Positions 1 through 18,298 of a stretch of 32,000 nucleotides of DNA are shown piece by piece; the stretch's first letter is position 1; each line of letters opens with the position of its first letter. This DNA comes from Delftia acidovorans NBRC 14950 (GTDB lineage Bacteria > Pseudomonadota > Gammaproteobacteria > Burkholderiales > Burkholderiaceae_C): assembly GCF_001598795.1 (NCBI RefSeq), contig NZ_BCZP01000001.1, positions 1-32,000 on the forward strand, given 5' to 3'. Below the pieces are notes generated by a model that searched no databases, was not told the DNA's origin, and saw only the letters and a list, made by a program, of their open reading frames with translations. The position numbers and the translations under genes are program-made.

Positions 1-470
1 TGGCAGCGCAGATATGCGAGACGCCTGCGACGGTGACGATTCCTGCGGGGCAAAGCTATGCGTACATCAGCGTGAGCGGCTTGGATGCTGGCTCAACCCA
101 GATCGAAGCTTCTGCTGCAGGCATGGATCCCGTCTATCTCAACGCGGAAACCGTGGCGCCGACGCTGCGCCTTCAGTCCGCTCCTGCCTCTTTGGCAGAG
201 GGGCAGAGGGCGGCCTATATCTCTGTCTCTGCTGAAGTCCCCGGGGCCTACTGGTCAACGAACCAATACCCGTCAGCTCCCCTGACCATCACCTTCACCA
301 GCTCCGTCCCCTCCGTAGGCACGATCACCGACAGCGTCACCTGGAATGCCAACTCGGGCAACTCGGGCTACGCCACCTTCACTGCGGTCGCTCCCGGAAC
401 CACCCAGATCACGGCCAGCTCCCCCGGCTTCACGCCGGCGACCAGCGGCCCGATCACGGTGAACCCATAA
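1..470 (+). CDS. C-terminal part of a secreted Ig-like (Big-type) repeat protein; 5' end lies outside the window
   Basis: Frame 3 is open from the window edge (nt 3) to TAA 468-470. The translation shows two repeats of bacterial Ig-like character (TIPAGQSYAYISVSGLDAGSTQIEASAAG; LAEGQRAAYISVSAEV...ATFTAVAPGTTQITASSPG). The same repeat style recurs in the CDS at 14004-16151. The stop is only 7 nt before the next start. Confidence 0.6.
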   Translation, partial: AAQICETPATVTIPAGQSYAYISVSGLDAGSTQIEASAAGMDPVYLNAETVAPTLRLQSAPASLAEGQRAAYISVSAEVPGAYWSTNQYPSAPLTITFTSSVPSVGTITDSVTWNANSGNSGYATFTAVAPGTTQITASSPGFTPATSGPITVNP

Positions 471-477
471 GAAAGAG

Positions 478-3400
478 ATGAGCATGCAACGCTCCCCATT
501 TTTCCAGTGCGCACGCTTTACGCTTTCCGTGGCCGCATGGCACAAACCGCTGTCGGCGCTTCGGCGTCGTTCCGTTGCGGCCCTGGCCATCGCATTGGGC
601 ATGAGCACGGCCATTGCCGCCGACACGGCGCAACTGACCATTGCCGATGGCGTGATCGTCAAGTTCGGCCAGGGCGCAGGCATCAGCGTGCGCAGCGGCC
701 TGCATACGGGATCTTCCGTGGTGCTGACCAGCAGCCACGATGACTCGCAGCTGGGTCCGGTGCAGGCGCAGGGGCCACAGTCCCGGGCGCCGCAGGCCGG
801 CGACTGGCTGGGTGTGCTGGTGGCGCCTGAAGCCGCTCCCGCCAGCCTGAAGCTGGACGGCCTGGCCGTTCGCTATGCCGGAGGCACGGACGGCTTGTCC
901 GGCCACATGGCAGGTGGTGCCGCTCTGGTACTGGCGGGTGCAGGCTACGGCTTCGAACGGCTGCAGTTCACGGACAACGCCGTGGGAATCCGGGTGGTCG
1001 GCAGCGGCAGTCCCCGCATCATGCGTTCGCGCATCGCTGGCAACGGCGTGGGATTGCTGGCAGAGCAGGGCGCCACGCCGGCCGTTGGTGAATCAGATAT
1101 CTCGGGCAACAGCCAGTTCGGCATACGCAACACCAGCCCGGCCAGCATCGTCCAGGCCCAGGGCAACTGGTGGGGCCACGCCAGTGGTCCGCGAGATGCC
1201 GTGGGCAATCCGGCAGGGCAGGGCAATGCGGTCAGCACGGGCGTGGACTATGGCTCCTACCTGACGGCCGAGCCCGTACTGGCCTGCACCATCGTTCCCA
1301 CGCAAGGCTATGCCACGCGCGTGCGTGCCGTGGAGCTGCGCCTTGACTGCCCGCAGGCCGCGCAGTTCCGCCTGCAGGAAAGCGATCAGTTCGACAGTGC
1401 TGCATGGCAGAGCATGACGGGCCACCCCATGCTGGCAAGCTACACGCTATCCCTGGGGGCGGGGGACAAGATGATCCATGTGCAGTTCCGCACGGCACAG
1501 GGTGGCATCAACCAGTTCTCGCTGCCACAACCCATTGCCTACGCACCTGAAGGTCCTTTGGTGCAGTTCGCCCAGCCAGCCGCTGGTGCCGTGCTGGAGC
1601 AGGACACGACCATCGCCATCAACGTGACCGACCCTGAAGGCGTGCAGCAGGTGGAGATCCTGGTGGATGGTCAGCGCCTGGCCCTGCTGACCGAAGCACC
1701 TTTCCAGACCACCTGGGCGCTGGCTGCCGTGCGCAACGGCAACTACACCCTGCAGGCCAGGGCCACCAATGGCATAGGCCTGAGCAACACGGCAACGCGC
1801 CCCGTGCAGGTGCAGAAAAAGGGTGGTCAAGGTCCGGTCATCACCGCCACTTTGGCAGGCGCGGCGCTTGTGCCCGATGCGACCATTTCCGCCGCAGGCG
1901 AATTGGCCGTGTCCGCGCAAAGCCCCATCGGCATTGCCAACGTCAAGGCCACCATCAACGGCCTGCAGATCTTCGAGCGCAGCGGTGGCAACACCAGCCC
2001 TTTCAACCACAGCCAGTTCATCGACTTTGCACAACTACCCAATGGCGCGCATCGGTTCAGCATCACCGCCACCGACTCGGACGGCATTGCGGCCGTGCTG
2101 GACATACCGTTCACGCTCAGTCTCAGCGCACCACCTGCCCCGGTCATTGCGCAGCCCGTCAACAACGCACAGGTGTCCACGCCGCAACTGGCCGTCTCCG
2201 GCACGGCCATGGCGGGCTCGCAGGTGCAGCTGTATCTGGGCGGCCAGGCCGTGGGCAGCCCGATGGCCGTGCCAGCCAATGGCAGCTTCTCCGGCAGCCT
2301 GACCCTGCCAGCCGAAGGCGCGCACCGCATCGAAGCGACGGCCAGCAATGCGCGCGGCACCAGCCCCAGGAGCGCGGCGGTTGCCGTGACCTATGCCATC
2401 GCGGCTCCGACGGTGAACTTCACCATGCCGGGCCAGGATGCCACCGTGGTCGGCAGCACGGCCGTAGGTGTCGCCGCCTCGGCACCGGACGGTATTGCCA
2501 AGGTCGATTTCTTCGCCAATGGCAGCCTGATCGGCTCAGCCACGCAGGCTCCGTTCAGCTTGCAATGGGACACGTCGGGCGTGGCCAACGGTGCCCTCAC
2601 GCTCAGGGCCGTGGCCACCAGCAAGGCAGGCAAGACTGGTGAAGCCACGCGCGCCGTCACCGTCAACAACAAGCCGCCCGAGCCTGAGCAGCCCAAGACG
2701 CCCTACACGGGCACGGTCAGCTCCGTCAGCCCGGCGGTCTCGTACGGCGCGCAACGCGTCGTCATAGCCGGTGCCGCCGTGTCACGCGCCAGCGGGCAGC
2801 CCATGCCCAACGCAGCATTGCGCATGGTGCTGGACATCTCGGGCTTCAAGCGGCGCATAGGCATCGCCACCGACGACAGCGGCCAGTACCGCTACGAATT
2901 CGTGCCCACGGCCAATGACAACGGCACCTACATCGTCTCCGTCATCCACCCGGAAGAAACCCTCACCACAGAGCAGGGGCGCTTCACCATCAACCGGCTG
3001 AGCTTCGACCTGGCCAGCTACCAGCTCACCGCGCCGCGCGGCTTTGCCGCCAGCATCACGGTCAACGCGCGTGCCAGCGCGGGCACGGGCGCCACCGGCG
3101 TGCGCTGGGCCGTGGTTCCGGCACAGCAACCCAGCGGCAGCCTGCCGCCGGGCATCAGCGTGGAGCCGGGGGCGCCGGTCAATGTGGCCGCAGGCGCCTC
3201 GGTGCCCATGGTCATCCGCTTCACGGGCAGTGCATCGGCCGGGGAGACGGGCACCGTCGTGCTCACGGCCTACGCCAGCGAGACAGGGGACACGCCCCGG
3301 GGCAGCTTCACCATCCACTACCGGCTGGTGCAGGCCTTGCCCGAGCTGTTTGCCAACCCCACCTACATAGAAACCGGGGTACAGCAGGAAAAGACGGTCA

Positions 3401-4983
3401 CCGAGAGCATCACCATCGGCAACCGTGGCCTGGTGGCCGCCCAGGACGTGAAGGTCCAACTGGTGGACAAGGATGGCAAGGCCGCGCCTTCCTGGATCTT
3501 CCTGTCCAGCGCCAGCCACATCGGCGCCGTGGACGTGGGCGCCCAGGTGCCCATCCAGGTCACGGCCAGCCCGGGCAAGGACGTGGCCGACGGCATCTAC
3601 AACTACCGACTGCAGATCACGGCCAGCAACCAGGGCACGGGCACCATACCCGTCTCGGTGGCCGTCACGCAAAGCGGGCAGGGCGGGCTGAGCTTCCATG
3701 CCACCGACCTGTTCACGGAAACGCTGGACGCGGGCGGCAAGCCCATACCGGGCGTGGCCAACGTGCGCATACGCCTGCAAAACGATGCCGTGCTCACCTA
3801 TATGCGTACCCTCACCACGGACGCGCAGGGCAAGGCCGTGCTCACCGACCTGCCGCCCGGCACCTACACCTACCGCGCCAGCGGCCCGCGCCATGCCGAC
3901 AGGTCGGGCCGCATCTTCGTGCGCCCGGGCGTCACCACCTCGGAGCGCGTGCACCTGCAGTACCAGACCATCAGCATCGACTTCAGCGTGACGGAAACCA
4001 CCATCAAGGACGAGTACCAGATCACCCTGGAAGCCACCTTCCAGACCCAGGTACCGGCCCCCGTGGTGCTGCTGGAGCCCCTGTCCATCAGCCTGCCCGA
4101 GCTGCAGGTGGGCGAGGAATTCACGGGCGAGCTGACGCTGACCAACTACGGCCTGATCCAGGCCGACAAGGTCGTCTTCACGCCGCCGCAGTCCGACGAG
4201 TACTACCGCTACGAATTCCTGGCGGACATCCCCAAGACCCTGGCCGCCAAGCAGCGCGTGGTCATTCCCTACCGCATCACGGCCGTCAAGCTGCACCCGC
4301 GCAGCATGGGCTTCAGGCAGGCACGTTCGGCGGAGATGGGTGCCGTGCAGAGCATCGTGGTGAATGCGCGCAATGCGGGCAGCTGCGCTGCCTATGCCAT
4401 GTGGGCCATGGTGGAGTTGGCGTGGATCTGTGCGAATGGAGAAGAGGAATCGCGCTCGCTCTCGGCCACGTTCAACCGGCTCGTTGGTGGCGCGTGCGGG
4501 AACACCGGCATCGGAGGGATTGGCGGGACCGGAGGCCACGGCGTGGGCGGTGGCATTGGTGGCTGGGGCAGTGGCGGTACTGGTGGTGGCGGAACACCCA
4601 TCGGCTTGACGCAGGGCTGCACGCCCTGGTGCCTTGGGGGTGGCTGTAGCTCTGAAGGCGGTGGCCCTGGAGGAGGGCGGGGTGGCAGTGGAGGCAGTTC
4701 AGGTGCTGGCGGCCAAGGCGGTGGGATGGGCGGCGGCCCCTTGCTGGGTGGCCATGGCGGCGGATTCGGCGGTGGCAGTGGCTCGGGCGGCAGTGGATCG
4801 AGTGGCAGCGGTGGCGGCGCGGGGGGCGGTGGGGCCGGTGGTAACGGGCCTGGTGGCGAAGGTCCTGGCGGCGCCGGGCCAGGAGGAGACGGGCCAGGAG
4901 GAGACGGGCCAGGAGGAGATGGACCCAATGCGCCGGGAGACGACGGACCCGGGGCGGACGGCCCTCCCTCGTGTGGGAGTTGA
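478..4983 (+). CDS. 1501-aa exported multidomain protein (beta-helix, Ig-like, transthyretin/CarboxypepD_reg-like and beta-sandwich modules, Gly-rich C-terminal tail); function unknown
   Basis: ATG 478 with purine-rich AAGAAAGAG just upstream; TGA at 4981-4983. The N-terminus has a long basic n-region, a hydrophobic core and AIA|ADT (Sec-type signal). By eye: a right-handed beta-helix/NosD-like segment ending in GNWWGHASGP, and four Ig-like modules (e.g. VQQVEILVDGQRLALLTEAPFQTTW...GNYTLQARATN; IAKVDFFANGSLIGSATQAPFSLQWDTSGVANGALTLRAVATS). Two CarboxypepD_reg-like modules are also visible (TDDSGQYRYEFVP; TTDAQGKAVLTDLPPGTYTYRASGPRH). The Gly-rich tail runs from about aa 1337. Confidence 0.85.
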   Translation: MSMQRSPFFQCARFTLSVAAWHKPLSALRRRSVAALAIALGMSTAIAADTAQLTIADGVIVKFGQGAGISVRSGLHTGSSVVLTSSHDDSQLGPVQAQGPQSRAPQAGDWLGVLVAPEAAPASLKLDGLAVRYAGGTDGLSGHMAGGAALVLAGAGYGFERLQFTDNAVGIRVVGSGSPRIMRSRIAGNGVGLLAEQGATPAVGESDISGNSQFGIRNTSPASIVQAQGNWWGHASGPRDAVGNPAGQGNAVSTGVDYGSYLTAEPVLACTIVPTQGYATRVRAVELRLDCPQAAQFRLQESDQFDSAAWQSMTGHPMLASYTLSLGAGDKMIHVQFRTAQGGINQFSLPQPIAYAPEGPLVQFAQPAAGAVLEQDTTIAINVTDPEGVQQVEILVDGQRLALLTEAPFQTTWALAAVRNGNYTLQARATNGIGLSNTATRPVQVQKKGGQGPVITATLAGAALVPDATISAAGELAVSAQSPIGIANVKATINGLQIFERSGGNTSPFNHSQFIDFAQLPNGAHRFSITATDSDGIAAVLDIPFTLSLSAPPAPVIAQPVNNAQVSTPQLAVSGTAMAGSQVQLYLGGQAVGSPMAVPANGSFSGSLTLPAEGAHRIEATASNARGTSPRSAAVAVTYAIAAPTVNFTMPGQDATVVGSTAVGVAASAPDGIAKVDFFANGSLIGSATQAPFSLQWDTSGVANGALTLRAVATSKAGKTGEATRAVTVNNKPPEPEQPKTPYTGTVSSVSPAVSYGAQRVVIAGAAVSRASGQPMPNAALRMVLDISGFKRRIGIATDDSGQYRYEFVPTANDNGTYIVSVIHPEETLTTEQGRFTINRLSFDLASYQLTAPRGFAASITVNARASAGTGATGVRWAVVPAQQPSGSLPPGISVEPGAPVNVAAGASVPMVIRFTGSASAGETGTVVLTAYASETGDTPRGSFTIHYRLVQALPELFANPTYIETGVQQEKTVTESITIGNRGLVAAQDVKVQLVDKDGKAAPSWIFLSSASHIGAVDVGAQVPIQVTASPGKDVADGIYNYRLQITASNQGTGTIPVSVAVTQSGQGGLSFHATDLFTETLDAGGKPIPGVANVRIRLQNDAVLTYMRTLTTDAQGKAVLTDLPPGTYTYRASGPRHADRSGRIFVRPGVTTSERVHLQYQTISIDFSVTETTIKDEYQITLEATFQTQVPAPVVLLEPLSISLPELQVGEEFTGELTLTNYGLIQADKVVFTPPQSDEYYRYEFLADIPKTLAAKQRVVIPYRITAVKLHPRSMGFRQARSAEMGAVQSIVVNARNAGSCAAYAMWAMVELAWICANGEEESRSLSATFNRLVGGACGNTGIGGIGGTGGHGVGGGIGGWGSGGTGGGGTPIGLTQGCTPWCLGGGCSSEGGGPGGGRGGSGGSSGAGGQGGGMGGGPLLGGHGGGFGGGSGSGGSGSSGSGGGAGGGGAGGNGPGGEGPGGAGPGGDGPGGDGPGGDGPNAPGDDGPGADGPPSCGS
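4876..4920 (+). repeat. 15-bp tandem repeat x3 (GGGCCAGGAGGAGAC/T) encoding GPGGD pentapeptides inside the Gly-rich tail
   Basis: Units at 4876-4890, 4891-4905 and 4906-4920 read directly from the sequence; the first two are identical and the third differs only at its last base. They are flanked by related GPGGE/GPGGA units. Confidence 0.9.
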
Positions 4984-4987
4984 GATA

Positions 4988-5013
4988 GGCCGGCCTGTCA
5001 TCCGGCAGGCCGG
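4988..5013 (+). other. GC-rich hairpin in the 109-nt spacer between the giant exoprotein gene and rhs; no T-run
   Basis: CCGGCCTG (4990-4997) pairs perfectly with CAGGCCGG (5006-5013) around an 8-nt loop. No U-tract follows, so it is not a canonical intrinsic terminator. Confidence 0.4.
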
Positions 5014-5092
5014 TCCAAGGGCGCAGCCATCAAGACGCTGCGCAGGGGATTGGAGAGGGGACCCATCAGCGGTCCAAAGGGAAGCGCAAAAA

Positions 5093-8000
5093 ATGACTAA
5101 GGCACTGAAACATTTGATTGATCTGGCCCAATATCCAGACAAGCGCGCCGCAGCGCGGCGGGCCTTGTCCTGGACTTTCGGGCGAATCTTTGCCTGGGCG
5201 TTGGCCCTGCTGAGCCTGGCAGTCCTGCAGGCACAGGCAAGCGAGTATCCGTACATCAAGTGGCCCAACGGTGAATACCGGGAGGTCAACACCGATCTGC
5301 AGGTCAAGGTACTGGGCGGAAGCATCGACATTGCCCGCACCTGGACGCTCGGGCGCTGGTGGCTCAACCCCGCATGGGCGCCGCTGGACTTCGAGCTGGA
5401 TCCCCTGGGCAGGGAGGCCAAGACCATCCAGCGCGCAGGCACGCTGTATGAAAGAAGCGGCCAGTCGGGCCTGTTCATCGCCAAGGACCGAGTGGATGCG
5501 CCCACCTTCATCCGGCAGGTCAGCCGCAATGGCCAGGATGGCTGGCAGTGGTATGACCGCCGTGGCAACACCATCGACTATGACGCGCAGGGGCGCATTC
5601 AGGGCTATGCGGATTTCAACGGCATCCAGGTCCGGTTCAGCTACGACAGCACGTCCAGCATCCGCATCCTTGACCACCATGGGCAGGTCGCTTTCAAGCT
5701 CACCTTGGCCGATGGCCTTGTCACCAGCATCGAAGACCGTGCAGGCAGTACCGTTCGCTATACCTGGGCGGGATCGGGGAGCGCCAGGCGCCTGACCGAA
5801 GTCCTGGATGCGAGGGGCAACCGCTGGACATACACCTATGACGGCAACGGCCAACTCACCAGCCGCACGGACCCGCTGGGGGGCAAGGTCACGGCCCAGT
5901 ACAGCGCCAGTGCGCCAGCACCCGCTGCCCAGTTCACGCTGGGCAACCTGGGCATCACCCTGGATCCCACGGGAACCAGTGGCACCACGCAGAAACTGCA
6001 GACCAACTGGGGAGGCGGGCGTGTCGGCAGTTTCAGTGACCGCCGGGGCACCACAACGGGTTCGGTGCAGTACCTCAGGGAATCACGAAAATTCATTGCC
6101 ACGCTGACGGATCCACGCGGCAATCGTCTGGTTGTTCACTATGACAAGGACGGCCTGGAGTCGAGCCGCAGCCTCAACGACAAACCCATTCGGCAAAGAA
6201 GCTGGGATGGCAACTACACGGACAGGCTGGTGGACGAGCGCGGCAACACCCGCACCACCTATTGGGACTACAACCGGCGCCCGCTGAGGATTCGCCACCC
6301 TGATGGCAGCGAGGAAAGCTACACCTACGATCCCGTGCATGGCGAAACCACCAGCCATACCAATGAACTGGGTACCGTCACCGCCTGGCGGCATGACAGC
6401 AAGGGGCGGGCGGTACAGCGTATCGAAGCCCAGGGTACTCCGCTGGAGCGCATCACGGCATGGGAGTACGACGAGCTGGGGCAAATCGTCCGGCAAACCC
6501 TGGGCACAGGCGCCCAGGCCAGCGTCACCACTTATGCCTATGACGGCAACGGCAATCGCAAAACGGCCACGGATGCCGAAGGTGGCGTGTGGAGTTACAC
6601 GCATACCGTCACCGGGCAAATGGCCAGCATCACCAACCCGCTGGGCCACACCACACGCCATGAATACGACAGCCACGGCAACCGCATCAAGACCATCTAT
6701 CCCTCGGGCCTGACATCCTCGGCGCGCTTCGATGCGCTTGGCAACGAAACCCAGAGCATGGATGGCGAGGGCCATGCCACCGTCGCTACCTATGACAGCC
6801 AAAGCCGCCTGGTCACGGCCACCAACGCGCTGGGCTACATCTACCGCTATGAGTACAACGCCTATGGCGACATCGTTTCGCAGAACACGCCCACCGGCAA
6901 CCGCCATGAACTGGGCTATGACAGCCTGGGCCGCGTCGCCAGCTACAAGAACCCGGCAGGCGACAACTCCCAATATGAATACGGAGCGCTGGGCACCCCC
7001 CAGGCCAACCTGCTGCAAGCCATCAATTACCCAGGCGGCCTTGCCGAGCTGGGCCAGTATGACCAGCGGGGGCGTCGCACCTCCATCATCCGCAAGGCAC
7101 GTAATGGCGAAAGCCTGACCCTGCACTACAGCCTTGACAGTGCAGGACAGACCGCCGCCATCACCAGCCCGGGCGGCAAGACCACCATCTACGAATACGA
7201 CGCACTGGGCCGCGTCTCCAAGTCCATCGACGCGAACGGCCAGGCCACCCAGATGGCCTACAACCTGTTGCACCAGATCACCCGCGTCACCGATGCCAAC
7301 GGCAACGTGCACACCAGGCAATACGACCGGCTGGGCCGACTGACCGAGGAAACGCGCCCGGAAGGTGGCAAAACCACCTATGCATACGATGCCGCAGGTT
7401 TTCTGATCAAGAAAACCAACGCGGCAGGAGATGTCAGCAGCTACACCTACAACAGCGATGGCCTGTTGACTCTGCTCACCCGCACCAGCGCGCAGGCCGG
7501 GCAACCGGGCTTGAGCAGCAGCATCACCTACCGTTATGACAAGGCTGGCCGCCTTGCCGGCTACGAACAAAAGGATGGCAGCGGCCAACTCATCAGCCAG
7601 GCCGACTACAGTCGTGACGCCCTGGGGCGCATCAGCCAGGAGCAACTGATCTACGGTGACGGCGCCAACCGCGTCATCGCCACTCTGGCCCAGGGCTGGG
7701 ATGCCGATGGCCGCAAAACCAGCCAGGGCTACCCTGACAGCAGTGCCGCCGTCTTCAGCTACGACAAGGGCTATCTCAAGGAGGCCGCCCAACCCGGCAG
7801 CACCGACAAGATCACATGGACCGACTACCAGTGGGTGCTGCCCACCAAGGTCCAGTACCCGGGCGCCAGCAGGAGCATTGCCTACGACGGTTTCTACAGA
7901 ATCCAGGGCATCCAAGTCCAGGGAGCCTCCAACGCCAACCTCCTGACGCTGGGCTACCAATACGACGCTGACAGCAGCGTCACACGCAAGACGCTGCAAC

Positions 8001-9151
8001 TGGGCAGCGATGTCAACGGCAGTGTGGATTACGCTTACGACGCGCTGGACCGCCTGACGCAGGTGCGCCCCAGCGCCGGTCTGGCTGACCTGGGCCTGCC
8101 TCAGGAGCAATACGGCTACGACGCCGTTCACAATCGCATCAGCAGCCTGCACCAACCCGGCGAATGGCAATACGGCAGCGGCAATCGGCTGGTGCAGCGA
8201 GGCCTGGGCAAGGATCTGGAGCGCTATGACTACACCGCCACAGGTCATATCCAGAGCGCCACGCGCAATGGCAGCGTCACCACCAATATCTATGACGCCA
8301 CCGATCGCAGGGTCGCCGTGGAGCAGGACGGGCAGCTCATCGCGCGCTATCAGTACGACCCGTTCGGGCGGCGTATAAGCAAGACGGTGGGAGCGCGTAC
8401 GACGTGGCTTATGTACAGCAAAGAAGGACTGTTGGCAGAGGTAGATGCCCAGGGAAAGACTGTGAAAGCTTATGGTTGGCAGCCTGATACGGACTGGGGT
8501 GCGGAGCCCCTGTGGCAAGCGGATCACGTCAACGATCAGACGGGAACTAGCAAGATTTACCACTATCTGCACAGTGACCATTTGAGCACTCCGCAGGTCG
8601 CCAGCGACGTGACAGGGCGCTCAACGTGGCAGGCCTTGAGCGAGAGCTTTGGTCAAACCCTTGAGCGCAACGGAAACCGAACGCGGATGAATCTGCGGTT
8701 TGCTGGACAGTATTTTGATGAAGAGGTGGGGACGCATTACAACTACTACCGTGACTATCAGCCAAAGTTGGGGAGGTATATAGAAAGTGATCCATTTGGA
8801 TTGAGTGGTGGCTTGAATTTGTTCGTATATGCGGAGCAAAGTCCGCTAGATGTTTATGACAATAATGGATTGGCTCCTAAATATGTAAAGCCTGATAATC
8901 CAAACAAGAGAAAACCGCCTGATCATAGAATTCCAAGTGGGGAAAGAGAGCGTAATGTTGGACATGAAAATGCAGAAGAGCATTCTAGACAATCAAAAAA
9001 ACAGCGAGGCTCTGGTGTGAAGGGGTCGCGCGGAGCGAGAGGCGTCGGAGGGTTACTTATTTGGGATATTGTTAATGACATATGTAATGAAAATCCAAGT
9101 GTTGGTGGTTGTGGTGTTATAAAGCCGCCGCCTCCCATAGATCCTTGTTAA
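5093..9151 (+). CDS. Rhs/YD-repeat polymorphic toxin (1352 aa) with an N-terminal Sec-type signal peptide, no PAAR, and a 92-aa variable C-terminal tip (CT1, 8873-9148)
   Basis: In-frame ATG at 5093 with AAGGGA 12-17 nt upstream. N-terminus: MTKALKHL...RRALSWTFGRIFAWALALLSLAVLQAQA|SEY. Many YD repeats are present (YTYDGNGQLTSRTDPLGG, YAYDGNGNRKTATDAEG, YEYDALGRVSKSIDANG, YQYDRLGRLTEETRPEGG). The Rhs core ends YHYLHSDHLSTP...NLRFAGQYFDEEVGTHYNYYRDYQPKLGRYIESDPFGL (8789-8803) SGGLNLFVYAEQSPLDVYDNNGL (8858-8872), which matches the DPxGL-type autoproteolysis box. GC falls to about 40% across the tip by hand count. Confidence 0.9.
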   Translation: MTKALKHLIDLAQYPDKRAAARRALSWTFGRIFAWALALLSLAVLQAQASEYPYIKWPNGEYREVNTDLQVKVLGGSIDIARTWTLGRWWLNPAWAPLDFELDPLGREAKTIQRAGTLYERSGQSGLFIAKDRVDAPTFIRQVSRNGQDGWQWYDRRGNTIDYDAQGRIQGYADFNGIQVRFSYDSTSSIRILDHHGQVAFKLTLADGLVTSIEDRAGSTVRYTWAGSGSARRLTEVLDARGNRWTYTYDGNGQLTSRTDPLGGKVTAQYSASAPAPAAQFTLGNLGITLDPTGTSGTTQKLQTNWGGGRVGSFSDRRGTTTGSVQYLRESRKFIATLTDPRGNRLVVHYDKDGLESSRSLNDKPIRQRSWDGNYTDRLVDERGNTRTTYWDYNRRPLRIRHPDGSEESYTYDPVHGETTSHTNELGTVTAWRHDSKGRAVQRIEAQGTPLERITAWEYDELGQIVRQTLGTGAQASVTTYAYDGNGNRKTATDAEGGVWSYTHTVTGQMASITNPLGHTTRHEYDSHGNRIKTIYPSGLTSSARFDALGNETQSMDGEGHATVATYDSQSRLVTATNALGYIYRYEYNAYGDIVSQNTPTGNRHELGYDSLGRVASYKNPAGDNSQYEYGALGTPQANLLQAINYPGGLAELGQYDQRGRRTSIIRKARNGESLTLHYSLDSAGQTAAITSPGGKTTIYEYDALGRVSKSIDANGQATQMAYNLLHQITRVTDANGNVHTRQYDRLGRLTEETRPEGGKTTYAYDAAGFLIKKTNAAGDVSSYTYNSDGLLTLLTRTSAQAGQPGLSSSITYRYDKAGRLAGYEQKDGSGQLISQADYSRDALGRISQEQLIYGDGANRVIATLAQGWDADGRKTSQGYPDSSAAVFSYDKGYLKEAAQPGSTDKITWTDYQWVLPTKVQYPGASRSIAYDGFYRIQGIQVQGASNANLLTLGYQYDADSSVTRKTLQLGSDVNGSVDYAYDALDRLTQVRPSAGLADLGLPQEQYGYDAVHNRISSLHQPGEWQYGSGNRLVQRGLGKDLERYDYTATGHIQSATRNGSVTTNIYDATDRRVAVEQDGQLIARYQYDPFGRRISKTVGARTTWLMYSKEGLLAEVDAQGKTVKAYGWQPDTDWGAEPLWQADHVNDQTGTSKIYHYLHSDHLSTPQVASDVTGRSTWQALSESFGQTLERNGNRTRMNLRFAGQYFDEEVGTHYNYYRDYQPKLGRYIESDPFGLSGGLNLFVYAEQSPLDVYDNNGLAPKYVKPDNPNKRKPPDHRIPSGERERNVGHENAEEHSRQSKKQRGSGVKGSRGARGVGGLLIWDIVNDICNENPSVGGCGVIKPPPPIDPC

Positions 9152-9164
9152 GTAGGGGTTAAAT

Positions 9165-9656
9165 TTGAAAGAAAAATCTTTTGACGAAGTGAATTCCATG
9201 CTTCTGAATGGGGAGGAGCGCAAGGTAAGGGGAATGTTGGTTGACCCTGATACTGGAAGAATCAAACGGGAGTATGCCTGGGATAGGAATCATGCTTGGT
9301 ATTGTGTTGGTGATGCAGATTTTAAAATGGGAAAATACAAAGATGCTATAAAATCTTTTAGAAAAGCATATGGTTATGATTCTGACGATGTTCAATGCTT
9401 GCTGGCAATTGGAAACTGCTTTGATGCAATTAAGGAGCCAAAGAAGGCTGAAAATATTTTAAAAAAAGCTCTTGATATTGGTTTGAAGGGAAAAGTCAGG
9501 TCCGCCGTTATTTTTAATTTGGGAAATGCGTTGTTTGATCAAGAGAGGTTTGATGAGGCTATTGCTTATTATTTGGATGTAAAAAATAGGCGCGACGAAA
9601 TTGGAAAAAAAGCTCGTAAAAATATCAAACTTATTCTTGATGGCAGGAATAATTGA
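9165..9656 (+). CDS. TPR-repeat protein, candidate cognate immunity for CT1 (no signal peptide)
   Basis: Starts 14 nt after the rhs stop, at TTG 9165 or alternatively ATG 9198. Low GC. Three TPR-like helix pairs are visible (AWYCVGDADFKMGKYKDAIKSFRKAYGYD; VQCLLAIGNCFDAIKEPKKAENILKKALDIG; AVIFNLGNALFDQERFDEAIAYYLDV). The position immediately 3' of a variable Rhs tip is the canonical immunity position. Confidence 0.65.
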   Translation: MKEKSFDEVNSMLLNGEERKVRGMLVDPDTGRIKREYAWDRNHAWYCVGDADFKMGKYKDAIKSFRKAYGYDSDDVQCLLAIGNCFDAIKEPKKAENILKKALDIGLKGKVRSAVIFNLGNALFDQERFDEAIAYYLDVKNRRDEIGKKARKNIKLILDGRNN

Positions 9657-9747: not shown

Positions 9748-10098
9748 GCTACGCCGCAGGTGTCCAGCGCCGCAGCAGGTCGTTCATCCATGCAGGCATT
9801 GAGCGAGAGCTTTGGGCACACGCTGGAGCGCAGCGGCAACCGTACGCGGATGAACCTGCGGTTCGCGGGGCAGTATTTTGATGAGGAGGCCGGGACTCAT
9901 TACAACCAGCAGCGGTACTATGTCTCAAATGTTGGTAATTTCATTTATCAACTAGAAAATAAAAGAGGAAGATTGGATTGTGTGATCTGGACTGTTGTGA
10001 CTACGTGGTCTATATCATGTGCATTGACAAGCGCTTTGATTTCTGAGGGAGTGGTTGCTCAAAAGGGTATTCGTACGGTTACACGTTGGGGCCAATAG
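9748..10098 (+). pseudogene. Decayed orphan rhs C-terminal junction (displaced tip remnant A)
   Basis: nt ~9750-9912 align with rhs 8588-8750 (ATPQVSSAAAGRSSMQALSESFGHTLERSGNRTRMNLRFAGQYFDEEAGTHYN versus STPQVASDVTGRSTWQALSESFGQTLERNGNRTRMNLRFAGQYFDEEVGTHYN). There is an in-frame TAG at 9745-9747, and the only start is GTG 9760 with no SD. After RYY the expected DPxGL box has degraded (VSNVGNFIYQLENKRG) and the frame runs into low-GC sequence. Confidence 0.7.
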
Positions 10099-10116: not shown

Positions 10117-11874
10117 TTGGGGAACTGGATCAGGGTAGGTGGACCTGGACTTGGCTATCCTATGATGCAAGAAGAGCACCAGCTCAAAGGCACGGAAATC
10201 GACCAACAGATCAGCTACCAATACGACGCTGATAGCCTGCTCTCGGGCTATGAACAAAAGGACGGCCAGCAAAACCTGATCAGCAGCGCCACCTACGACA
10301 AGGACGCGCAAGGCCGAACCACCCAGAACAAGGTCACCTACGGCAAGGTCGATAACACGGGCAGCTTCAGCTTCACGGTAGGCCAAAGCTACAACGCGGA
10401 CGGCCAGTTGGCCAGCCACAGCTACCCAGATGGCAGCGCAGGCCAATACAGCTACGCCAAGGGCCGCCTGAGCCTGGTGACCCTGCCGGACCAGAGCCAG
10501 ATCCGCTACGGAAACTACCAATGGCTCACGGCCACGCGCATCGAAACTCCGGGTGCGACCAAGACCATCAGCCTCGATGCGCTGCAAAGGCCCCTATCCA
10601 TCGAAGTGAAGAACGCCGCCTCCGAACTGCTGGTCAGCCGCCACTACCAATATGACAAGGCTGGCAACATCACCCAAATCGAAAGTGACCTGGGGAAAAC
10701 CGAGTATGGCTACGACAACCTGGACCGGCTGACCAAGGCCGCCCCAGACCAGCCGCTCAAGGACCTGGGCCTGCCCACGGAGCAATACCAGTACGACGCC
10801 GTGCACAACCGAGTGTTCAGTGGCCACCAGGTGGGGCAGTGGAGCTACAACGCGGACAACCAGCTCACCAGCTATCCCCGGCTCAGACCCTTCGACAAAG
10901 CAGCACAGCCCATACAAACCCAGGTGGAGTACACGCCGCAGGGGCACACGGCCAGGGAAAGCAGTGACAAAGGCGAACGAACCTACAACTACAACGCCGC
11001 CGAGCGCTTGATCCGCTACTCCAGCGCGGAGGCAAGCCAAAGCACCCCCGGCATTGATGCCCAATATCGCTATGACCCGTTAGGACGACGCATCTTCAAA
11101 GAGGTGAGGGAGGGCCAAAACTACAAAATAACCTACTTTTTCTACAGCGACTCGGGACTGCTGGGCGAGGCCAACGAGCAAGGGCTGATGACAAGGGCGT
11201 ATGCCTTCGATCCTAAAAAAAGCGAACAAGGGCTATGGAATACAGACCCCATCTGGCAGGCGGACGTCAGTGAAGCGCAGTTGACGAGCCAGAACACCAG
11301 CGTTCACTATCTGCACACGGATCATCTGGGAACGCCGGTGCTGGGGACCAGCAAAAAGGGAGCGGTCATTTGGAATGGTGTTGCGGATGCGTTTGGAACC
11401 ACAGGGGCATTGCCGCAAAGTCAGGTGGAGATGAATTTGAGGTTTCCGGGGCAGTATTTTGATATGGAATCTGGATTAGTTAATAATCTCAATAGAGATT
11501 ATTCAAATTTTATTGCCAGATATATGCAATCAGACACAATTAAACTGATTGGCGGTATTAATTTTTATATTTATTCAGAAAATAATCCTATCATTTTCTT
11601 TGATGACCGTGGATTGAAGAGTAAGTCATGCCCTCTTATACTTAGATTACTTGGGAAATGTGATGGTGCTGATGGATATGATAGTTGCGCTAATGATGCA
11701 GTTGATGAAGGTGGGAATTGCACAACATGCTACGCCTGTTGCGCTTTGAATGAGAAAACTTTAATTGGACTGTCGGAGTGTAAGTTGCATTGTATGAGAA
11801 TAGTTAATCCTGGCGGAGGAACTTGCCCAGAAGATAAGGTCTCTTGTGGGAATAGGCATGAAAAGAATACTTAG
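10117..11874 (+). CDS. 5'-truncated orphan rhs module: about 465 aa of diverged Rhs core plus an 85-aa Cys-rich tip (CT2, 11617-11871)
   Basis: From ~10207 the translation parallels main-rhs residues from ~nt 7520 (ISYQYDADSLLSGYEQKDGQQNLISSATYDKDAQGR versus ITYRYDKAGRLAGYEQKDGSGQLISQADYSRDALGR) and continues through VHYLHTDHLGTP...MNLRFPGQYFDMESGL...SDTIKLIGGINFYIYSENNPIIFFDDRGL. Only weak starts exist (TTG 10117, ATG 10162), so independent expression is uncertain. GC drops from ~11440. Confidence 0.75.
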   Translation: MGNWIRVGGPGLGYPMMQEEHQLKGTEIDQQISYQYDADSLLSGYEQKDGQQNLISSATYDKDAQGRTTQNKVTYGKVDNTGSFSFTVGQSYNADGQLASHSYPDGSAGQYSYAKGRLSLVTLPDQSQIRYGNYQWLTATRIETPGATKTISLDALQRPLSIEVKNAASELLVSRHYQYDKAGNITQIESDLGKTEYGYDNLDRLTKAAPDQPLKDLGLPTEQYQYDAVHNRVFSGHQVGQWSYNADNQLTSYPRLRPFDKAAQPIQTQVEYTPQGHTARESSDKGERTYNYNAAERLIRYSSAEASQSTPGIDAQYRYDPLGRRIFKEVREGQNYKITYFFYSDSGLLGEANEQGLMTRAYAFDPKKSEQGLWNTDPIWQADVSEAQLTSQNTSVHYLHTDHLGTPVLGTSKKGAVIWNGVADAFGTTGALPQSQVEMNLRFPGQYFDMESGLVNNLNRDYSNFIARYMQSDTIKLIGGINFYIYSENNPIIFFDDRGLKSKSCPLILRLLGKCDGADGYDSCANDAVDEGGNCTTCYACCALNEKTLIGLSECKLHCMRIVNPGGGTCPEDKVSCGNRHEKNT

Positions 11875-12268
11875 TTTTTTTACAGTTGGGATTGTTTTTG
11901 CTTTGGGGTGCGGGGTAGGGTATCGCGTCCATAAAATAGAAAGCGAAAACATAGAGAAATTTTCTGCGATAAAAGAAATGAATTTCTCGCTGAAAAATGC
12001 GCGTACTCCGGATTGCTTGGGAGAAATAAGGGCTACAGAATATCTATTTAAGTTTTGCAGAGCGAATTTTTCTCACGAATTTATGATGGATAAAGATTAT
12101 TTAAATTACAAGGATGGTATATACAGAAACGATTTGCGTTTTGCGGCTAAATACAGGATGGAAAATCCAATAGACGAAAGTTACTTCAAGAGCTGCAAAG
12201 GAGTTAGCCTAGAATACCGTGAGCTTATAATGAAATGTTGGGAAAGTATAAGTCACGAGTTAAATTGA
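11858..12268 (+). CDS. Small exported or lipoprotein-like protein, candidate immunity for CT2
   Basis: ATG 11858 overlaps the orphan rhs stop (11872-11874) by 17 nt; GTG 11846 is an alternative start. N-terminus MKRILSFFTVGIVFALG|C is signal/lipobox-like. Low GC. Four further Cys residues are present. No family recognised. Confidence 0.6.
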   Translation: MKRILSFFTVGIVFALGCGVGYRVHKIESENIEKFSAIKEMNFSLKNARTPDCLGEIRATEYLFKFCRANFSHEFMMDKDYLNYKDGIYRNDLRFAAKYRMENPIDESYFKSCKGVSLEYRELIMKCWESISHELN

Positions 12269-12445
12269 TTTAATTAAATATTTCAACACAAATGGATTTT
12301 CGTCATTTTTCAAGAAATTAAGAGAAATAAATAAAGCAAGAGTTCTTTTGTATTGATATTGCGAAAAATAATTGCATATTGCAAAAAGGATTGGATAGTC
12401 AGATTCAATAGTGAGGAAGACATCTTTAACAGTAAGAACCACTAT

Positions 12446-12765
12446 GGAAGGTCTGCATAAATCACCTCATTACCTGATTGGCATCGACGTGAAGCACTGA
12501 GACGATACGCAGCATGAAGCAGCACGGCCTGGGCTTGGGACAAACAGTCAAGCGAATGTGGTGCCGGGAGTTCCTGGACTAGATGGACCGACCTTGTGAG
12601 CTACCAAGGTACTGGCAAACGGCTTAATGCCAAGCGAGACGTGACATGGCACATCGCCATGCGACCCGATAAACGCCGCCTGCTGGAGCCGGCCAAACCT
12701 CGAACAGATGAAAAAGGTGGCAGAGTGCCAGGCTGAATATGCTTCATGCATGGCAAGTTTCGGGG
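12446..12765 (+). mobile_element. IS5-family remnant: left end plus internally deleted, stop-ridden transposase fragments
   Basis: GGAAGGTCTGCATAA at 12446 resembles the IS5 terminal GGAAGGTGCGAA. ATG 12514 gives MKQHGLGLGQTVKRMWCREFLD*MDR (compare IS5-type ...KRTRKREFLDEMDRVVPW). A later fragment, RDVTWHIAMRPDKRRLL, matches the conserved mid-protein motif (...V.W.VAMRPGKRR.L). There are multiple stops and frame changes. GC jumps relative to the flanks. Confidence 0.5.
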
Positions 12766-12772
12766 GAAATAA

Positions 12773-13198
12773 ATGAAAAAATTATTAGTCGGCTCCGTTT
12801 TTATAATTGTCTTTTTGAGTGGGTTTGTATTTTGCTTATTTTTTTCAATCAAAGCTAGTAAATTATGGGTTGCTGAAGAGGATATCAGAAGAGCGTTTTA
12901 TTACGAATCGAAAGCTGTGGAAATGTATAATTCTGGGAATATTTCTGCTGCACGAGATAATATTGTGGCAGCCAGTGCTCTGGTTGATAATATTGTTAAA
13001 CGGAATGAATGGGACTTGTTTGCGCCACTATTTATTATTGTTCTTCAGGAACCTGAGTCGAGAGAAGATTACAACAAATGTTTATTGAGCTATCTTGATA
13101 AGGTGAAGGAATATGGTAGAGAGAAATATGATTCGAAAGACTATTGTAGCGTTTTAGGGGAGGCGCTATTCGAGCACAGAAGTGGAGGGGAAAATTAG
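12773..13198 (+). CDS. Membrane-anchored small protein, orphan immunity-like gene with no toxin upstream
   Basis: ATG at 12773, 141 aa, low GC. N-terminal TM segment LLVGSVFIIVFLSGFVFCLFFSI, followed by a helical and possibly TPR-like region (RRAFYYESKAVEMYNSGNISAARDNIVAASALVDNIV). It sits within the rhs tip/immunity array. Confidence 0.5.
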   Translation: MKKLLVGSVFIIVFLSGFVFCLFFSIKASKLWVAEEDIRRAFYYESKAVEMYNSGNISAARDNIVAASALVDNIVKRNEWDLFAPLFIIVLQEPESREDYNKCLLSYLDKVKEYGREKYDSKDYCSVLGEALFEHRSGGEN

Positions 13199-13270
13199 GA
13201 CTTACGCAAAATCCGTATCAACGTGACCTGCCGATTTCTTCGGGCCAGTGATTTATGGGAGGAGAGCGTG
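13199..13270 (+). pseudogene. Left half of a third rhs junction remnant (remnant C); the right half is at 13803-13822
   Basis: 13205-13270 translates as KIRINVTCRFLRASDLWEES, which resembles NRTRMNLRFAGQYFDEE. At DNA level GACCTGCCGATTTC...GGGCCAGTGATTTATGGGAGGAG parallels AACCTGCGGTTCGCGGGGCAGTATTTTGATGAGGAG. Immediately after the inserted element, ACGGGGACTCATTACCA (13805-13821) matches GCCGGGACTCATTACAA (the GTHYN box at 9891-9907) at 14/17 positions. Confidence 0.4.
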
Positions 13271-13322
13271 CTTAGATGTACGGTCCCAGGAACATTCTTC
13301 AGCTGGAAGAGGAGAAAGCACT

Positions 13323-13439
13323 ATGGCAATCCGCCTGCATGGCAGTGCCCGCACAACGCCGCGTATCCGTGCAGAACTCCAGCTAGCGACCGGCTCGCAT
13401 CGGTCCTTGGCCAAGCTCTACGGCATTAAGAGTGGCTAA
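13323..13439 (+). pseudogene. IS481-family transposase N-terminal (HTH) fragment
   Basis: MAIRLHGSARTTPRIRAELQLATGSHRSLAKLYGIKSG* resembles the N-terminus of one IS481-family branch (..LHGSATTT...R.AIQ.S..S.RALSKRYGINPKTV). It is truncated after 38 aa, and its ATG lies 52 nt inside the left inverted repeat. Confidence 0.55.
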
Positions 13440-13487
13440 CACCACTCCGTCACAGGCCCCCGCAGAGCAGTTATGTTCGCTGCCCTC

Positions 13488-13801
13488 ATGGCACGACGAC
13501 GCGTGAGCAAAGAACTGTGGCGACAGCTACAGCCCCTGATCCCAGCCTTCGTGCCTTCGTGCCTTCGTGCCTTCGTGCCTTCGTGCCTTCGGCCAAAGGC
13601 GGTGCGCGCAAACTCGCAGTCAGCGATGAGGCCGCCCTCAACGGCATCTTGTTCGTGTTGCAAACAGGCATTCCGTGGGAAGAGCTTCCCCAATCCCTTG
13701 GGTACGGCAGCGGCATGACTTGCTGGCGGCGCCTGCGCGACTGGAACGCCGCTGGTGTCTGGGAGCAGTTGCACCATGACTTCCTGGGACCGTACATCTA
13801 A
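13488..13801 (+). pseudogene. IS5-family/IS427-group orfA (DUF4096-type) fragment, frameshifted by a microsatellite and 3'-truncated
   Basis: MARRRVSKELWRQLQPLIP... in one frame, and ...AKGGARKLAVSDEAALNGILFVLQTGIPWEELPQSLGYGSGMTCWRRLRDWNAAGVWEQLH in another. Together they match the well-known N-terminal module of IS427-group transposases. The homology stops where the right inverted repeat begins. Confidence 0.7.
13545..13591. repeat. 8-bp microsatellite (GCCTTCGT) in about 5.9 copies
   Basis: Units at 13545, 13553, 13561, 13569 and 13577, plus a partial GCCTTCG at 13585-13591, read directly from the sequence. Confidence 0.95.
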
Positions 13802-13825
13802 GAGACGGGGACTCATTACCATGCA

Positions 13826-13935
13826 GGATGCGCGGGAGAAATTGAAGGCTTACAGCATGACTATAACCATCATCGCCCGCGCGGTTTGCTTGGCCACCTG
13901 ACCCTAAGCGAATTCGTCAAAGAGAGATTAGATCA
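13826..13935 (+). pseudogene. IS3-family transposase (rve) C-terminal tail fragment
   Basis: The frame starting at 13802 reads ...AGEIEGLQHDYNHHRPRGLLGHLTLSEFVKE, matching the conserved IS3 OrfB C-terminus (W..DYN..RPHSSLG..TP.EF). No upstream catalytic region is present. Confidence 0.55.
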
Positions 13936-14003
13936 ACAGCTGGAAAGTCGCTCAACTCCAGTTTTGAAGCGACCGGGTATGTGGAAAATGCCAGCGATAA
14001 ATC

Positions 14004-18224: not shown

Positions 18225-18242
18225 GCTGGGCAGTGGAATGAA

Positions 18243-18264
18243 GGGCAGCATGGCTGCCCTTTTT
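18243..18264 (+). terminator. Intrinsic terminator after the MFS gene
   Basis: GGGCAGC (18243-18249), loop ATG, GCTGCCC (18253-18259), then TTTTT. Confidence 0.7.
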
Positions 18265-18298
18265 CTTGGGCGCCGCATGGATCGCTGACAATCCTTTC

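Follow-up and report, generated by a model that had tools for sequence, protein, structure and literature searches.

We analysed a 32,000-nucleotide stretch of Delftia acidovorans NBRC 14950 DNA (contig NZ_BCZP01000001.1, positions 1 to 32,000; hereafter the window) that carries, side by side on its forward strand, the gene for a giant exoprotein rich in immunoglobulin-like (Ig) domains (gene D) and the gene for an Rhs protein with tyrosine-aspartate (YD) repeats and a signal peptide of its own (gene E). The two are very likely linked in function, and we suggest that they are probably the two halves of one extracytoplasmic toxin-display molecule. The Rhs protein is likely to be independent of type VI secretion (the T6SS). 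Below we set out the conservation of the pair, its natural fusions and the architecture of the two proteins, and weigh these against other readings of the locus.

By searching a one-genome-per-species collection for the two most conserved C-terminal peptides of the giant (T-Q-V-P-A-P-V-V and S-D-E-Y-Y-R-Y-E-F) we recovered 79 loci, numbered here with the prefix L. At 68 of them at least 700 bp of downstream sequence was available, and these were searched for a downstream Rhs, the window Rhs serving as the tblastn query. An Rhs gene lies directly downstream of the giant on the same strand in 63 of these testable loci, and this adjacency is kept down to about 35% identity of the giant. The remaining five are the most distant matches, with 24–27% identity in four and 35% in the fifth. 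A hidden Markov model of the plug, the family-specific N-terminal segment of the Rhs, found its target at 68 of the 79 loci, among them several at which little sequence follows the giant gene before the contig ends. The 11 loci without a plug are made up of five with less than 700 bp downstream (L004, L020, L030, L057 and L058; 4–639 bp), five distant ones (24–27% identity) and L062. Rhs genes are rare in genomes, so that the adjacency cannot be chance, and it extends far past the range of passive gene-order retention. The loci come from Comamonadaceae, other Burkholderiales, Rhodocyclaceae, Lysobacterales/Xanthomonadales, Methylococcales, Chromatiales, several Desulfobacterota families and one Planctomycetota genome bin.

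The natural fusions are, as we read the sequences, the strongest evidence for a joint function of the two window proteins. At at least nine loci (L045, L056, L060, L063, L066, L067, L071, L072 and L075, probably also L068), from at least three phyla, giant and Rhs are encoded by a single stop-free open reading frame (ORF) of about 2,600–5,060 aa, and an exhaustive search of 1.84 billion representative sequences added four further long proteins (2,834–4,767 aa) with an internal plug. The products at L056 (4051 aa) and L066 (4374 aa) hold in one chain, by Pfam, a head, an Ig/fn3 array, CarboxypepD_reg, 12–15 RHS repeats and the RHS core, and in the fused proteins the transthyretin-like domain stands about 280 residues upstream of the YD shell. 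At the junctions the conserved cysteines of the giant tail and a Gly-rich stretch run straight into the plug motif; the Cys-containing helix/hairpin element of the giant also precedes the linker in the fused proteins. Similarity of the fused proteins to the window Rhs starts at about residue 60, just past the predicted cleavage between residues 49 and 50, and the leader is thus specific to the split form. Since the junction in the fusions matches both the giant tail and the start of the Rhs after cleavage, the split forms would be the same molecule cut at a flexible linker, its downstream half having acquired a signal peptide.

The first-pass annotation had named the giant as the obvious partner candidate of the Rhs and had asked for a check of whether homologues of the two are consistently adjacent in other genomes. 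The genomic neighbourhoods bear out the partner idea, and a physical partnership is what we infer from the adjacency and the single-chain forms. One candidate fusion in a close relative (P0025) was rejected, as its internal jumps (giant residue ~510 to 1040; Gly tail into mid-Rhs) point to a probable assembly collapse. At L008 the giant coding region runs into an Rhs within one ORF (12313–18495), whose plug stands near residue 700; downstream, a giant fragment is followed by a separate Rhs that has a leader of its own. Tandem duplicated giant–Rhs pairs within one genome are seen at L042 and L049, on the same Verminephrobacter contig, and at L008. In a Xanthomonadales/Polaromonas/Verminephrobacter subgroup one or two ORFs of about 530–600 aa precede a longer giant of about 2,100 aa (L038, L031, L039, L044, L049, L050, L052 and L055); none falls into a listed Pfam family at E <= 1e-5, and the two just upstream of the giant at L038 (6629–8320 and 8301–9932) have no Pfam match at E <= 0.001.

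Within the giant, conservation peaks in the C-terminal module beside the junction and not in the adhesin-like head (alignment A1). Pfam finds two Big_7 domains (9e-37), Big_13, a CarboxypepD_reg domain at residues 1084–1161 and a weak Beta_helix, and 68 homologues were found by search. The mature N-terminus directly after the AxA site is conserved (A-D-x-A-Q-L-x-I-A-D-G-V-V-V-K-F-G), and NWWG is one of the invariant motifs of the alignment. A profile of the transthyretin-like region matches domains of the SdrD B/Cna-B (prealbumin-like) type in the PDB. AlphaFold2 (AF2) models the domains of the C-terminal module with a predicted local distance difference test score (pLDDT) of 82–92, about 82–91 for the Ig/PapD-like domain that ends near residue 1275, and residues 1166–1190 at about 40, that is, as disordered. 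This segment (window 3973–4047) lies just upstream of T-Q-V-P-A-P-V-V, between confidently modelled domains, and is among the best conserved of the protein. Because it is highly conserved yet disordered when modelled alone, it may fold only against a partner, for example as a docking strand, which we offer as a lead only. Foldseek with the C-terminal domain model returned generic Ig/PapD/ASH folds only, and the last 347 residues have no Pfam match at E <= 10.

The head of the giant is exchanged in some relatives. Protein P0010 has PF06119 and a NIDO-like start, and the heads of fused proteins are NosD beta-helices or PQQ beta-propellers. In D. acidovorans MMO-42 (L005) the giant is 96% identical to that of the window from about residue 353 and has no similarity to window residues 1–352, the non-matching head regions being L005:8660–10000 and window 478–1530; gene C, which precedes gene D in the window, is absent from L005. 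The giant head seems, from these comparisons, to be swapped like a cassette.

The Rhs protein carries ten RHS_repeat domains (5e-78) and the RHS core by Pfam, and Rhs_assc_core (2e-20) by NCBIfam. Sec-type leaders with AxA sites had been read at the N-termini of both window proteins, and this reading is confirmed: an n-h-AxA leader ending directly ahead of the plug motif was recognised in 31 of the 35 full-length members of the Rhs family, and a charge/hydropathy test for leaders is passed by 43 of 53 relatives of the giant. The unusually long basic n-region that had been pointed out is present in both Delftia proteins (about 31 aa) and is specific to Delftia; as a family trait it does not stand, the leaders of Rhs and giant relatives being mostly 20–35 aa in all. 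Behind the Rhs leader comes the plug, an all-beta segment of about 100 aa (AF2 pLDDT 76–93 blockwise), and the YD repeats start some 105 residues past the mature N-terminus. The exhaustive search gave 420 plug clusters at E <= 1e-3; full counts are taken from it, word-indexed searches with the Rhs N-terminus and the plug profile having returned short fragments only. In full-length proteins of 1,260–1,530 aa the plug starts at about residue 20–85, right behind the leader, and is never preceded by the 100–300 extra residues that a PAAR or VgrG module needs; in proteins of 2,800–4,800 aa it is internal. An AF2 model of residues 53–1252 (36-sequence alignment; pLDDT 91.4, predicted template modelling score 0.83) is an all-beta cocoon with no propeller that opens directly with plug and shell as continuous beta-hairpins. 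Rhs proteins of the Xanthomonadales/Polaromonas/Verminephrobacter subgroup have 130–250 extra residues after the plug.

The reading of giant and Rhs as two halves of one molecule has to be weighed against the alternative that they are independent neighbours, the giant an ordinary adhesin or matrix protein and the Rhs a self-sufficient soluble toxin exported by Sec and type II secretion (the T2SS), sharing an operon for co-regulation or export. Several points weigh against our reading, and some of them speak directly for this alternative. The Rhs carries a leader of its own and might be secreted and work by itself as a soluble toxin; toxins of a Sec/T2SS class with RHS repeats are an accepted category (PMC3482391); and activity of other Rhs toxins in cell-free supernatants is cited in bioRxiv 10.1101/2025.05.08.652813. 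A plug-type Rhs without a giant exists in Comamonas odontotermitis (CP083451.1), second Rhs copies without a giant gene of their own occur in L005 and L006, and the giant homologue at L062 (35% identity) has no Rhs in 10 kb of downstream sequence. Contact between giant and Rhs is deduced from the fusions, the structure models covering the separate halves only, and the leaders were called by sequence reading and a simple charge/hydropathy/AxA heuristic. No outer-membrane transporter or channel was identified in the cluster, the Rhs shell is nearest to T6SS-type Rhs in both sequence and fold, and the search for T6SS genes was confined to the window, 4.9 kb upstream and large flanking ORFs. The C. 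odontotermitis Rhs (L085:8001–10684) lies after a porin gene in fragments of 359 and 535 aa with no giant nearby; we take it for a solitary copy in decay, which speaks against strict pairing. Against independence stand the fusions, whose junctions fall exactly at the leader cleavage point, the maintenance of adjacency in diverged giants, and the fact that the giant is best conserved near the junction and not in its head. Moreover, a prepilin-type motif, as in a gspG-like pseudopilin or T2SS neighbour, was found at only 1 of the 79 loci, so that a conserved T2SS pseudopilin neighbour such as that of the Xanthomonas and Ralstonia Rhs families was rejected. We consider independent neighbours unlikely and favour the two halves of one display molecule.

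On its sequence features the Rhs of such a display molecule would behave as a polymorphic toxin: its core motif is intact, the tips of the family are diverse, the tip and immunity region is of low GC content, and an orphan module and a core remnant follow downstream (Table 1). The GC content falls from about 0.65 to 0.40–0.55 at 8–13 kb, across the toxin tips and the candidate immunity genes. The window tip itself has no Pfam match at E <= 10; in Rhs relatives the tips are Ntox21, Ntox16, Tlde1, EndoU and PLA2-like. The low-GC tetratricopeptide repeat (TPR) protein encoded just past the Rhs gene is, by its position, a candidate cognate immunity protein. The Rhs core remnant at 9751–9906 would be the vestige of an earlier exchange of toxin tips. 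After the orphan module come two small low-GC ORFs, one lipobox-like (11846–12268) and one with a transmembrane N-terminus (12773–13198); because of these N-termini the arrangement suggests that the orphan toxin acts in the envelope, in contrast to what is expected from the leaderless TPR candidate.

These features bear on a second alternative, in which the pair is an adhesion or kin-recognition system resembling a teneurin receptor, with the tip either serving kin discrimination or vestigial. The teneurin-like domain order (transthyretin-like, then YD shell), the large and variable adhesin-like heads and the co-conserved anchored Ig proteins fit such a role, and the social role of bacterial teneurin-like proteins (TLPs) has been left open by those who described them (PMC13018210). 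Such a role is made improbable by the intact cleavage motif of the Rhs core, by recognisable tips in relatives (Ntox21, EndoU, Tlde1 and Ntox16 among them), and by a candidate immunity gene together with an orphan tip/immunity cassette, the hallmark of an active polymorphic toxin locus.

Independence from the T6SS is supported by several negative results. The first-pass annotation had taken it as background that characterised Gram-negative Rhs effectors are T6SS cargo; this is too narrow, since a Sec/T2SS class and Sec-dependent TLPs have already been described (PMC3482391, PMC13018210). Its description of the window Rhs as PAAR-less holds at the level of domains: Pfam gives no match of any kind, PAAR and DUF6531 included, in residues 1–177 at E <= 10, and PAAR, DUF6531 and VgrG domains are found in 0 of 36 Rhs family members. 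Nor does the absence of vgrG, Eag, DUF4123 or DUF2169 genes upstream end with the window, as the corresponding region of CP066006.1 shows only the rest of gene C and the rhodanese-like gene B beyond nucleotide 1, and T6SS genes are absent both from the window and from the 4.9 kb upstream in that record. There is no VgrG among 62 large flanking ORFs, the flanks of other loci not having been systematically scanned for small adaptor genes. Thus the window Rhs shares with T6SS effectors a YD cocoon and the core motif, and has neither a PAAR/VgrG fusion nor an adjacent vgrG or adaptor gene nor a leaderless N-terminus. That it is unrecognised T6SS cargo, with its hydrophobic N-terminus a membrane anchor or prePAAR-like element serving a T6SS encoded elsewhere through some unknown adaptor, is highly improbable: the kinship of its shell, the local scope of the survey and the A-A-A-R-R of the window leader, which we take to be a faint resemblance to the start of the prePAAR motif, speak for it, and against it stand a high-confidence AF2 model that starts with the plug and no PAAR after the leader, the mostly short classical n-h-AxA leaders of relatives, the giant and not vgrG or an adaptor gene immediately upstream of the Rhs in 63 of 68 loci, and the position of the Rhs at the C-terminus of Ig-rich fusions of 2,600–5,000 aa, which we judge implausible for T6SS loading.

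The locus had been described as a two-gene module. D and E are indeed paired, and the module is larger, as two further genes, A and B, co-occur with them in either order, often together with gene C. Gene A codes for a protein of roughly 1,500 aa that contains SdrD_B, DUF11 and Big_1 domains; its C-terminus has in Delftia a 'choice-of-anchor U' domain and an IPTL-CTERM sorting signal, and elsewhere a similar hydrophobic-basic tail. Gene B encodes a rhodanese-like protein of 280–360 aa. Gene C, the third large exoprotein of the operon, encodes an exported 1462-aa beta-helix/Ig/PEGA/CarboxypepD_reg protein (full gene L081:990–5378, CP066006.1). All three products begin with leader-like sequences. 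Gene A was detected in about 46 loci and gene B in about 30, and gene C homologues lie upstream of the giant in about 30. The order A-B-(C)-D-E is found in the Comamonadaceae/Burkholderiales group and in some Desulfobacterota; the Xanthomonadales group, Methylomonas and others have gene A downstream of D/E, and L054, L056 and L060 have gene B downstream. A and B are also found beside fused proteins. That the association survives rearrangement of the gene order argues that A and B would belong to the D–E system.

For the giant and Rhs as halves of one toxin-display molecule we propose the following sequence of events. Each half would reach the periplasm by Sec through its own cleavable leader. 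The giant would contribute the variable head and long Ig stalk, which would bind the target, together with its transthyretin-like domain and conserved C-terminal module. The Rhs would contribute the plug, the YD cocoon, a self-cleaving core and an exchangeable tip held inside the cocoon; the downstream immunity gene would protect the producer, and orphan cassettes would permit exchange of the tip. In some lineages the molecule would be a single polypeptide with a Gly-rich linker, and in Delftia and most others it would have been split at the linker, the Rhs gaining a leader. The two halves would then re-associate non-covalently, the C-terminal module of the giant with the plug or shell of the Rhs. 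Together with anchored A and exported B, the complex would form a toxin, displayed at the cell surface or released, that binds target cells without a T6SS, A (through its C-terminal sorting signal) and B being candidates for anchoring or maturation. The path would be completed by passage of the outer membrane, by entry into a target and by antibacterial action. More tentatively, A-B-(C)-D-E could constitute an undescribed T6SS-independent toxin-presentation apparatus of diderms, in which a YD cocoon on an Ig/transthyretin-like stalk of 1,400–3,000 aa is displayed with IPTL-CTERM-type anchored A and with B; we see this as a possibility worth stating, at lower confidence than the pairing itself.

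The closest described system is the bacterial teneurin-like protein. TLPs such as BiTLP of Bacillus inaquosorum (PDB 9pt5/9ifo) comprise Ig, transthyretin-like, TIP, FN-plug, NHL, YD shell and toxin regions; they are Sec-dependent, have a downstream immunity gene, occur in Gram-negatives as well, and show no evident delivery machinery (PMC13018210). The Delftia family shares with them a Sec leader, a variable adhesion/Ig N-terminus, a transthyretin-like domain before a plugged YD shell, an Rhs-type aspartyl autoproteolysis motif, a polymorphic tip followed by a candidate immunity gene (the TPR gene, given that role by its position only) and the lack of a known delivery machinery. In the window a separate polypeptide carries the Ig and transthyretin-like domains; in the at least nine fused loci they share the chain with the shell, in the same domain order. 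The echo of the teneurin ectodomain heard in the first-pass annotation therefore stands for the architecture, the transthyretin-like domain preceding the YD shell in one chain of the fused forms, and fails for membership: the Delftia pair is not a TLP family member because it lacks the NHL six-bladed beta-propeller. Neither in the window proteins nor in L056 or L066 does Pfam place an NHL or propeller match between transthyretin-like domain and RHS repeats. The family differs further in being mostly split into two separately exported polypeptides, in having genes A and B as conserved partners, and in a region after the transthyretin-like domain that has no match to BiTLP. Homology of the giant C-terminal module to the TTR/TIP region of BiTLP was rejected, the profile reaching only SdrD/Cna-B type domains. 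Likewise, a plug profile of 41 sequences found only noise among PDB sequences, BiTLP included, and the plug was dropped as a detectable homologue of T6SS Rhs plugs or of the FN-plug. The C. odontotermitis TLPs listed in PMC13018210 are apparently single proteins of about 2,475 aa, by the coordinates of its supplement, unlike the split giant and Rhs pair at L016.

The shell of the Delftia Rhs is nearer to T6SS-type Rhs than to TLPs. Foldseek ranks T6SS Rhs shells first (1e-60 to 1e-52), followed by 9ifo (3.5e-48), teneurins (~1e-40) and TcB-TcC (~1e-37), and the sequence search gives the same ranking (2e-54 for T6SS-type Rhs vs 4e-32 for TLPs). T6SS Rhs effectors (RhsA 7q97, Tse5 8cp6, RhsP 8h8a, Tse15 8uy4 and VgrG-Rhs 8qja) are thus the best sequence and fold matches to the YD cocoon and core, and share the core motif, polymorphic tips, immunity genes and orphan modules. 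They differ in their PAAR, prePAAR or VgrG fusions, where the Delftia family has a Sec leader and its own type of plug, is paired or fused with a giant Ig/transthyretin-like exoprotein and has no vgrG or chaperone gene nearby. In Tc (ABC) toxins a YD cocoon with a toxin likewise stands beside a very large receptor-binding partner, and the cocoon folds are related, if distantly. The Delftia Rhs, in contrast, has no SpvB, TcdB or beta-propeller; the giant has no TcA-like helical pore-forming region and is, in its modelled or Pfam-matched parts, all-beta Ig/transthyretin-like; and both proteins have Sec leaders. WapA of Bacillus subtilis is a Sec-dependent, wall-associated YD toxin that acts by contact, independently of a T6SS, and comes with an immunity protein. 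It shares with the Delftia Rhs the signal peptide, the YD repeats and the status of a T6SS-independent Rhs relative; by description, the basis of our comparison, it differs as a single polypeptide with wall-binding repeats and no giant partner, in a Gram-positive without an outer membrane. It is also mentioned in PMC12704120.

Signal-peptide RHS toxins of proteobacteria are a recognised computational class, 'T2SS/Sec-dependent' (Zhang et al. 2012, PMC3482391, Table 1), and T2SS-linked Rhs families have been proposed in Xanthomonas and Ralstonia from a gspG neighbour (bioRxiv 10.1101/2025.05.08.652813). By its sequence the window Rhs falls within the definition of Zhang et al. 2012: it has the signal peptide, RHS repeats, exchangeable tip, adjacent candidate immunity gene and orphan cassettes of that class, comes from a Gram-negative and is predicted to bypass the T6SS. 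It differs from the Xanthomonas and Ralstonia families in having no conserved gspG-like neighbour, and a search for terms denoting a carboxypeptidase-, transthyretin- or Ig-like partner found none in PMC3482391 and bioRxiv 10.1101/2025.05.08.652813. By its stalk partner, its fusions and its A/B genes the family is set apart from the Sec/T2SS-class RHS toxins. Within an incomplete literature collection we found no paper that describes the giant–Rhs pair, its fusions or genes A and B. At base this is a polymorphic Rhs toxin of the Sec class, laid out like a teneurin; its novelty lies in the conserved, sometimes fused, giant stalk partner and the two accessory genes.

Table 1. Features of the giant–Rhs locus, in window positions
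Feature	Position	Strand	Description
Gene C, 3' end	3..470	+	Ig/CarboxypepD_reg (Pfam CarboxypepD_reg 7e-8); truncated by window start
Gene D, giant exoprotein	478..4983	+	1501 aa; proposed stalk/adhesin half; Pfam, homologues
Predicted Sec signal peptide of giant	478..618	+	Residues 1-47; basic 1-31, hydrophobic 32-47; AIA-ADT, cut after A47
Head and Ig array of giant	619..3726	+	Beta-helix-like head at about residues 50-270, then BiPBP_C, Big_13/Big_6, Big_7 x2 (Pfam)
Transthyretin/prealbumin-like domain	3727..3960	+	CarboxypepD_reg, residues 1084-1161, Pfam 4e-14; AF2 pLDDT 84-92
Most conserved part of giant	3973..4302	+	Segment 1166-1190 and Ig/PapD-like domain to about 1275; T-Q-V-P-A-P-V-V, S-D-E-Y-Y-R-Y-E-F
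Cys-containing helix and long beta-hairpin	4342..4488	+	Residues 1289-1337; C1303 and C1318 invariant; AF2 pLDDT ~83
Gly/Pro-rich low-complexity tail	4489..4980	+	C-x-P-x-C; AF2 pLDDT <50; matches linker of single-chain forms
Spacer	4984..5092	+	109 nt; 8-bp G+C stem 4990-4997/5006-5013 without T-run
Gene E, signal-peptide Rhs	5093..9151	+	1352 aa; Pfam RHS_repeat and RHS core; NCBIfam YD_repeat, Rhs_assc_core
Predicted Sec signal peptide of Rhs	5093..5239	+	Residues 1-49; basic 1-31, hydrophobic 32-45; AQA-SEY, cut after A49
Family-specific N-terminal plug	5240..5560	+	Residues 50-156; P-N-G-E-Y-x-E-x3-D-L-x-V-K-V-L-G-G-x3-I-x-R-x-W (alignment A2)
YD-repeat shell and Rhs core	5561..8869	+	Aspartyl-protease motif intact: D-P-F-G (1233), 18 residues, D-N-N-G-L (1255-1259)
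C-terminal toxin tip	8870..9151	+	Residues 1260-1352; 93 aa, basic, three Cys; GC from 0.62 to 0.42-0.55
Low-GC TPR protein	9165..9656	+	163 aa, no leader; Pfam TPR best 3e-15; GC3 0.32; 13 nt past rhs stop
Rhs core remnant	9751..9906	+	81% nucleotide identity to window 8588-8743
Orphan Rhs C-terminal module	10117..11874	+	Pfam RHS_repeat and RHS core; 38.6% identity to Rhs residues 807-1263; own Cys-rich tip
Small lipoprotein-like ORF, candidate immunity	11846..12268	+	Overlaps orphan module; F-A-L-G-C lipobox-like N-terminus

The window has no mismatches to CP066006.1 (assembly GCA_016127415.1, a 6.8-Mb chromosome) over its first 14 kb, the part compared, and the upstream remainder of gene C and the genes beyond nucleotide 1 were read from that chromosome. 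GC content at third codon positions (GC3) was used to tell real genes. The order on the forward strand is the end of gene C (its last 155 codons), D, the spacer, E, the TPR gene, the Rhs core remnant, the orphan Rhs module and small membrane- or lipoprotein-like ORFs; these are followed by an IS4/5-family transposase fragment (DUF4096, 9.5e-19; 13517–13801) at the edge of the low-GC toxin/immunity array, a minus-strand LamG/He_PIG gene and housekeeping genes, the latter (MFS, NIF3, pdxA, petABC, sspAB, secA, argJ and others) making up the rest of the window. The LamG/He_PIG protein (715 aa, 14004–16151, minus strand) is about 55% identical to residues 87–458 of the gene C homologue at L003 (tblastn), and public calls place Beta_helix_4 on both this protein and gene C of the window genome; it looks, on this similarity, like a paralogous head domain on a separate surface protein past the Rhs array.

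The tight same-strand packing of C, D and E (470/478 and 4983/5093) was reproduced in every coordinate, as was the hairpin without a U-tract in the spacer. The giant ORF runs from 478; NCBI-style calling places the start at ATG 484. The Rhs gene has a GGGAAG Shine-Dalgarno sequence 8 nt upstream of ATG 5093. A consensus scan of the forward strand found no terminator-like or promoter-like site from 470 to about 8860, which makes co-transcription of the giant and Rhs genes plausible. The Rhs frame is open over 4610–5092, 480 nt before the ATG, where it overlaps the Gly-rich tail of the giant. A programmed frameshift from D to E was rejected, as the frame from 4610 reads Ala/Val-rich off-frame and the signal peptide would end up internal; the open frame appears to be a by-product of the GC-rich repeat and not coding.

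Gram-negative Rhs toxins have been studied almost only as T6SS cargo. The display and delivery of signal-peptide Rhs toxins and of TLPs is explicitly left unresolved, no delivery machinery being evident for TLPs (PMC13018210). Here, in a widespread family (420 plug clusters, 79 loci), the cocoon has a partner that looks obligate, the expected site of contact between the halves is marked by the split and fused forms, and the missing functions in display or export have candidates in genes A and B. Since Delftia and Comamonas can be cultured, the system is open to genetics. The family is an evolutionary link from classical Rhs toxins to the transthyretin-then-YD layout of teneurins. On the more tentative reading of A-B-(C)-D-E as a presentation apparatus, its fused and split forms would represent a living intermediate that connects classical Rhs toxins with the single-chain architecture of teneurins, and would offer a handle on how Sec-dependent YD toxins, TLPs included, reach their targets.

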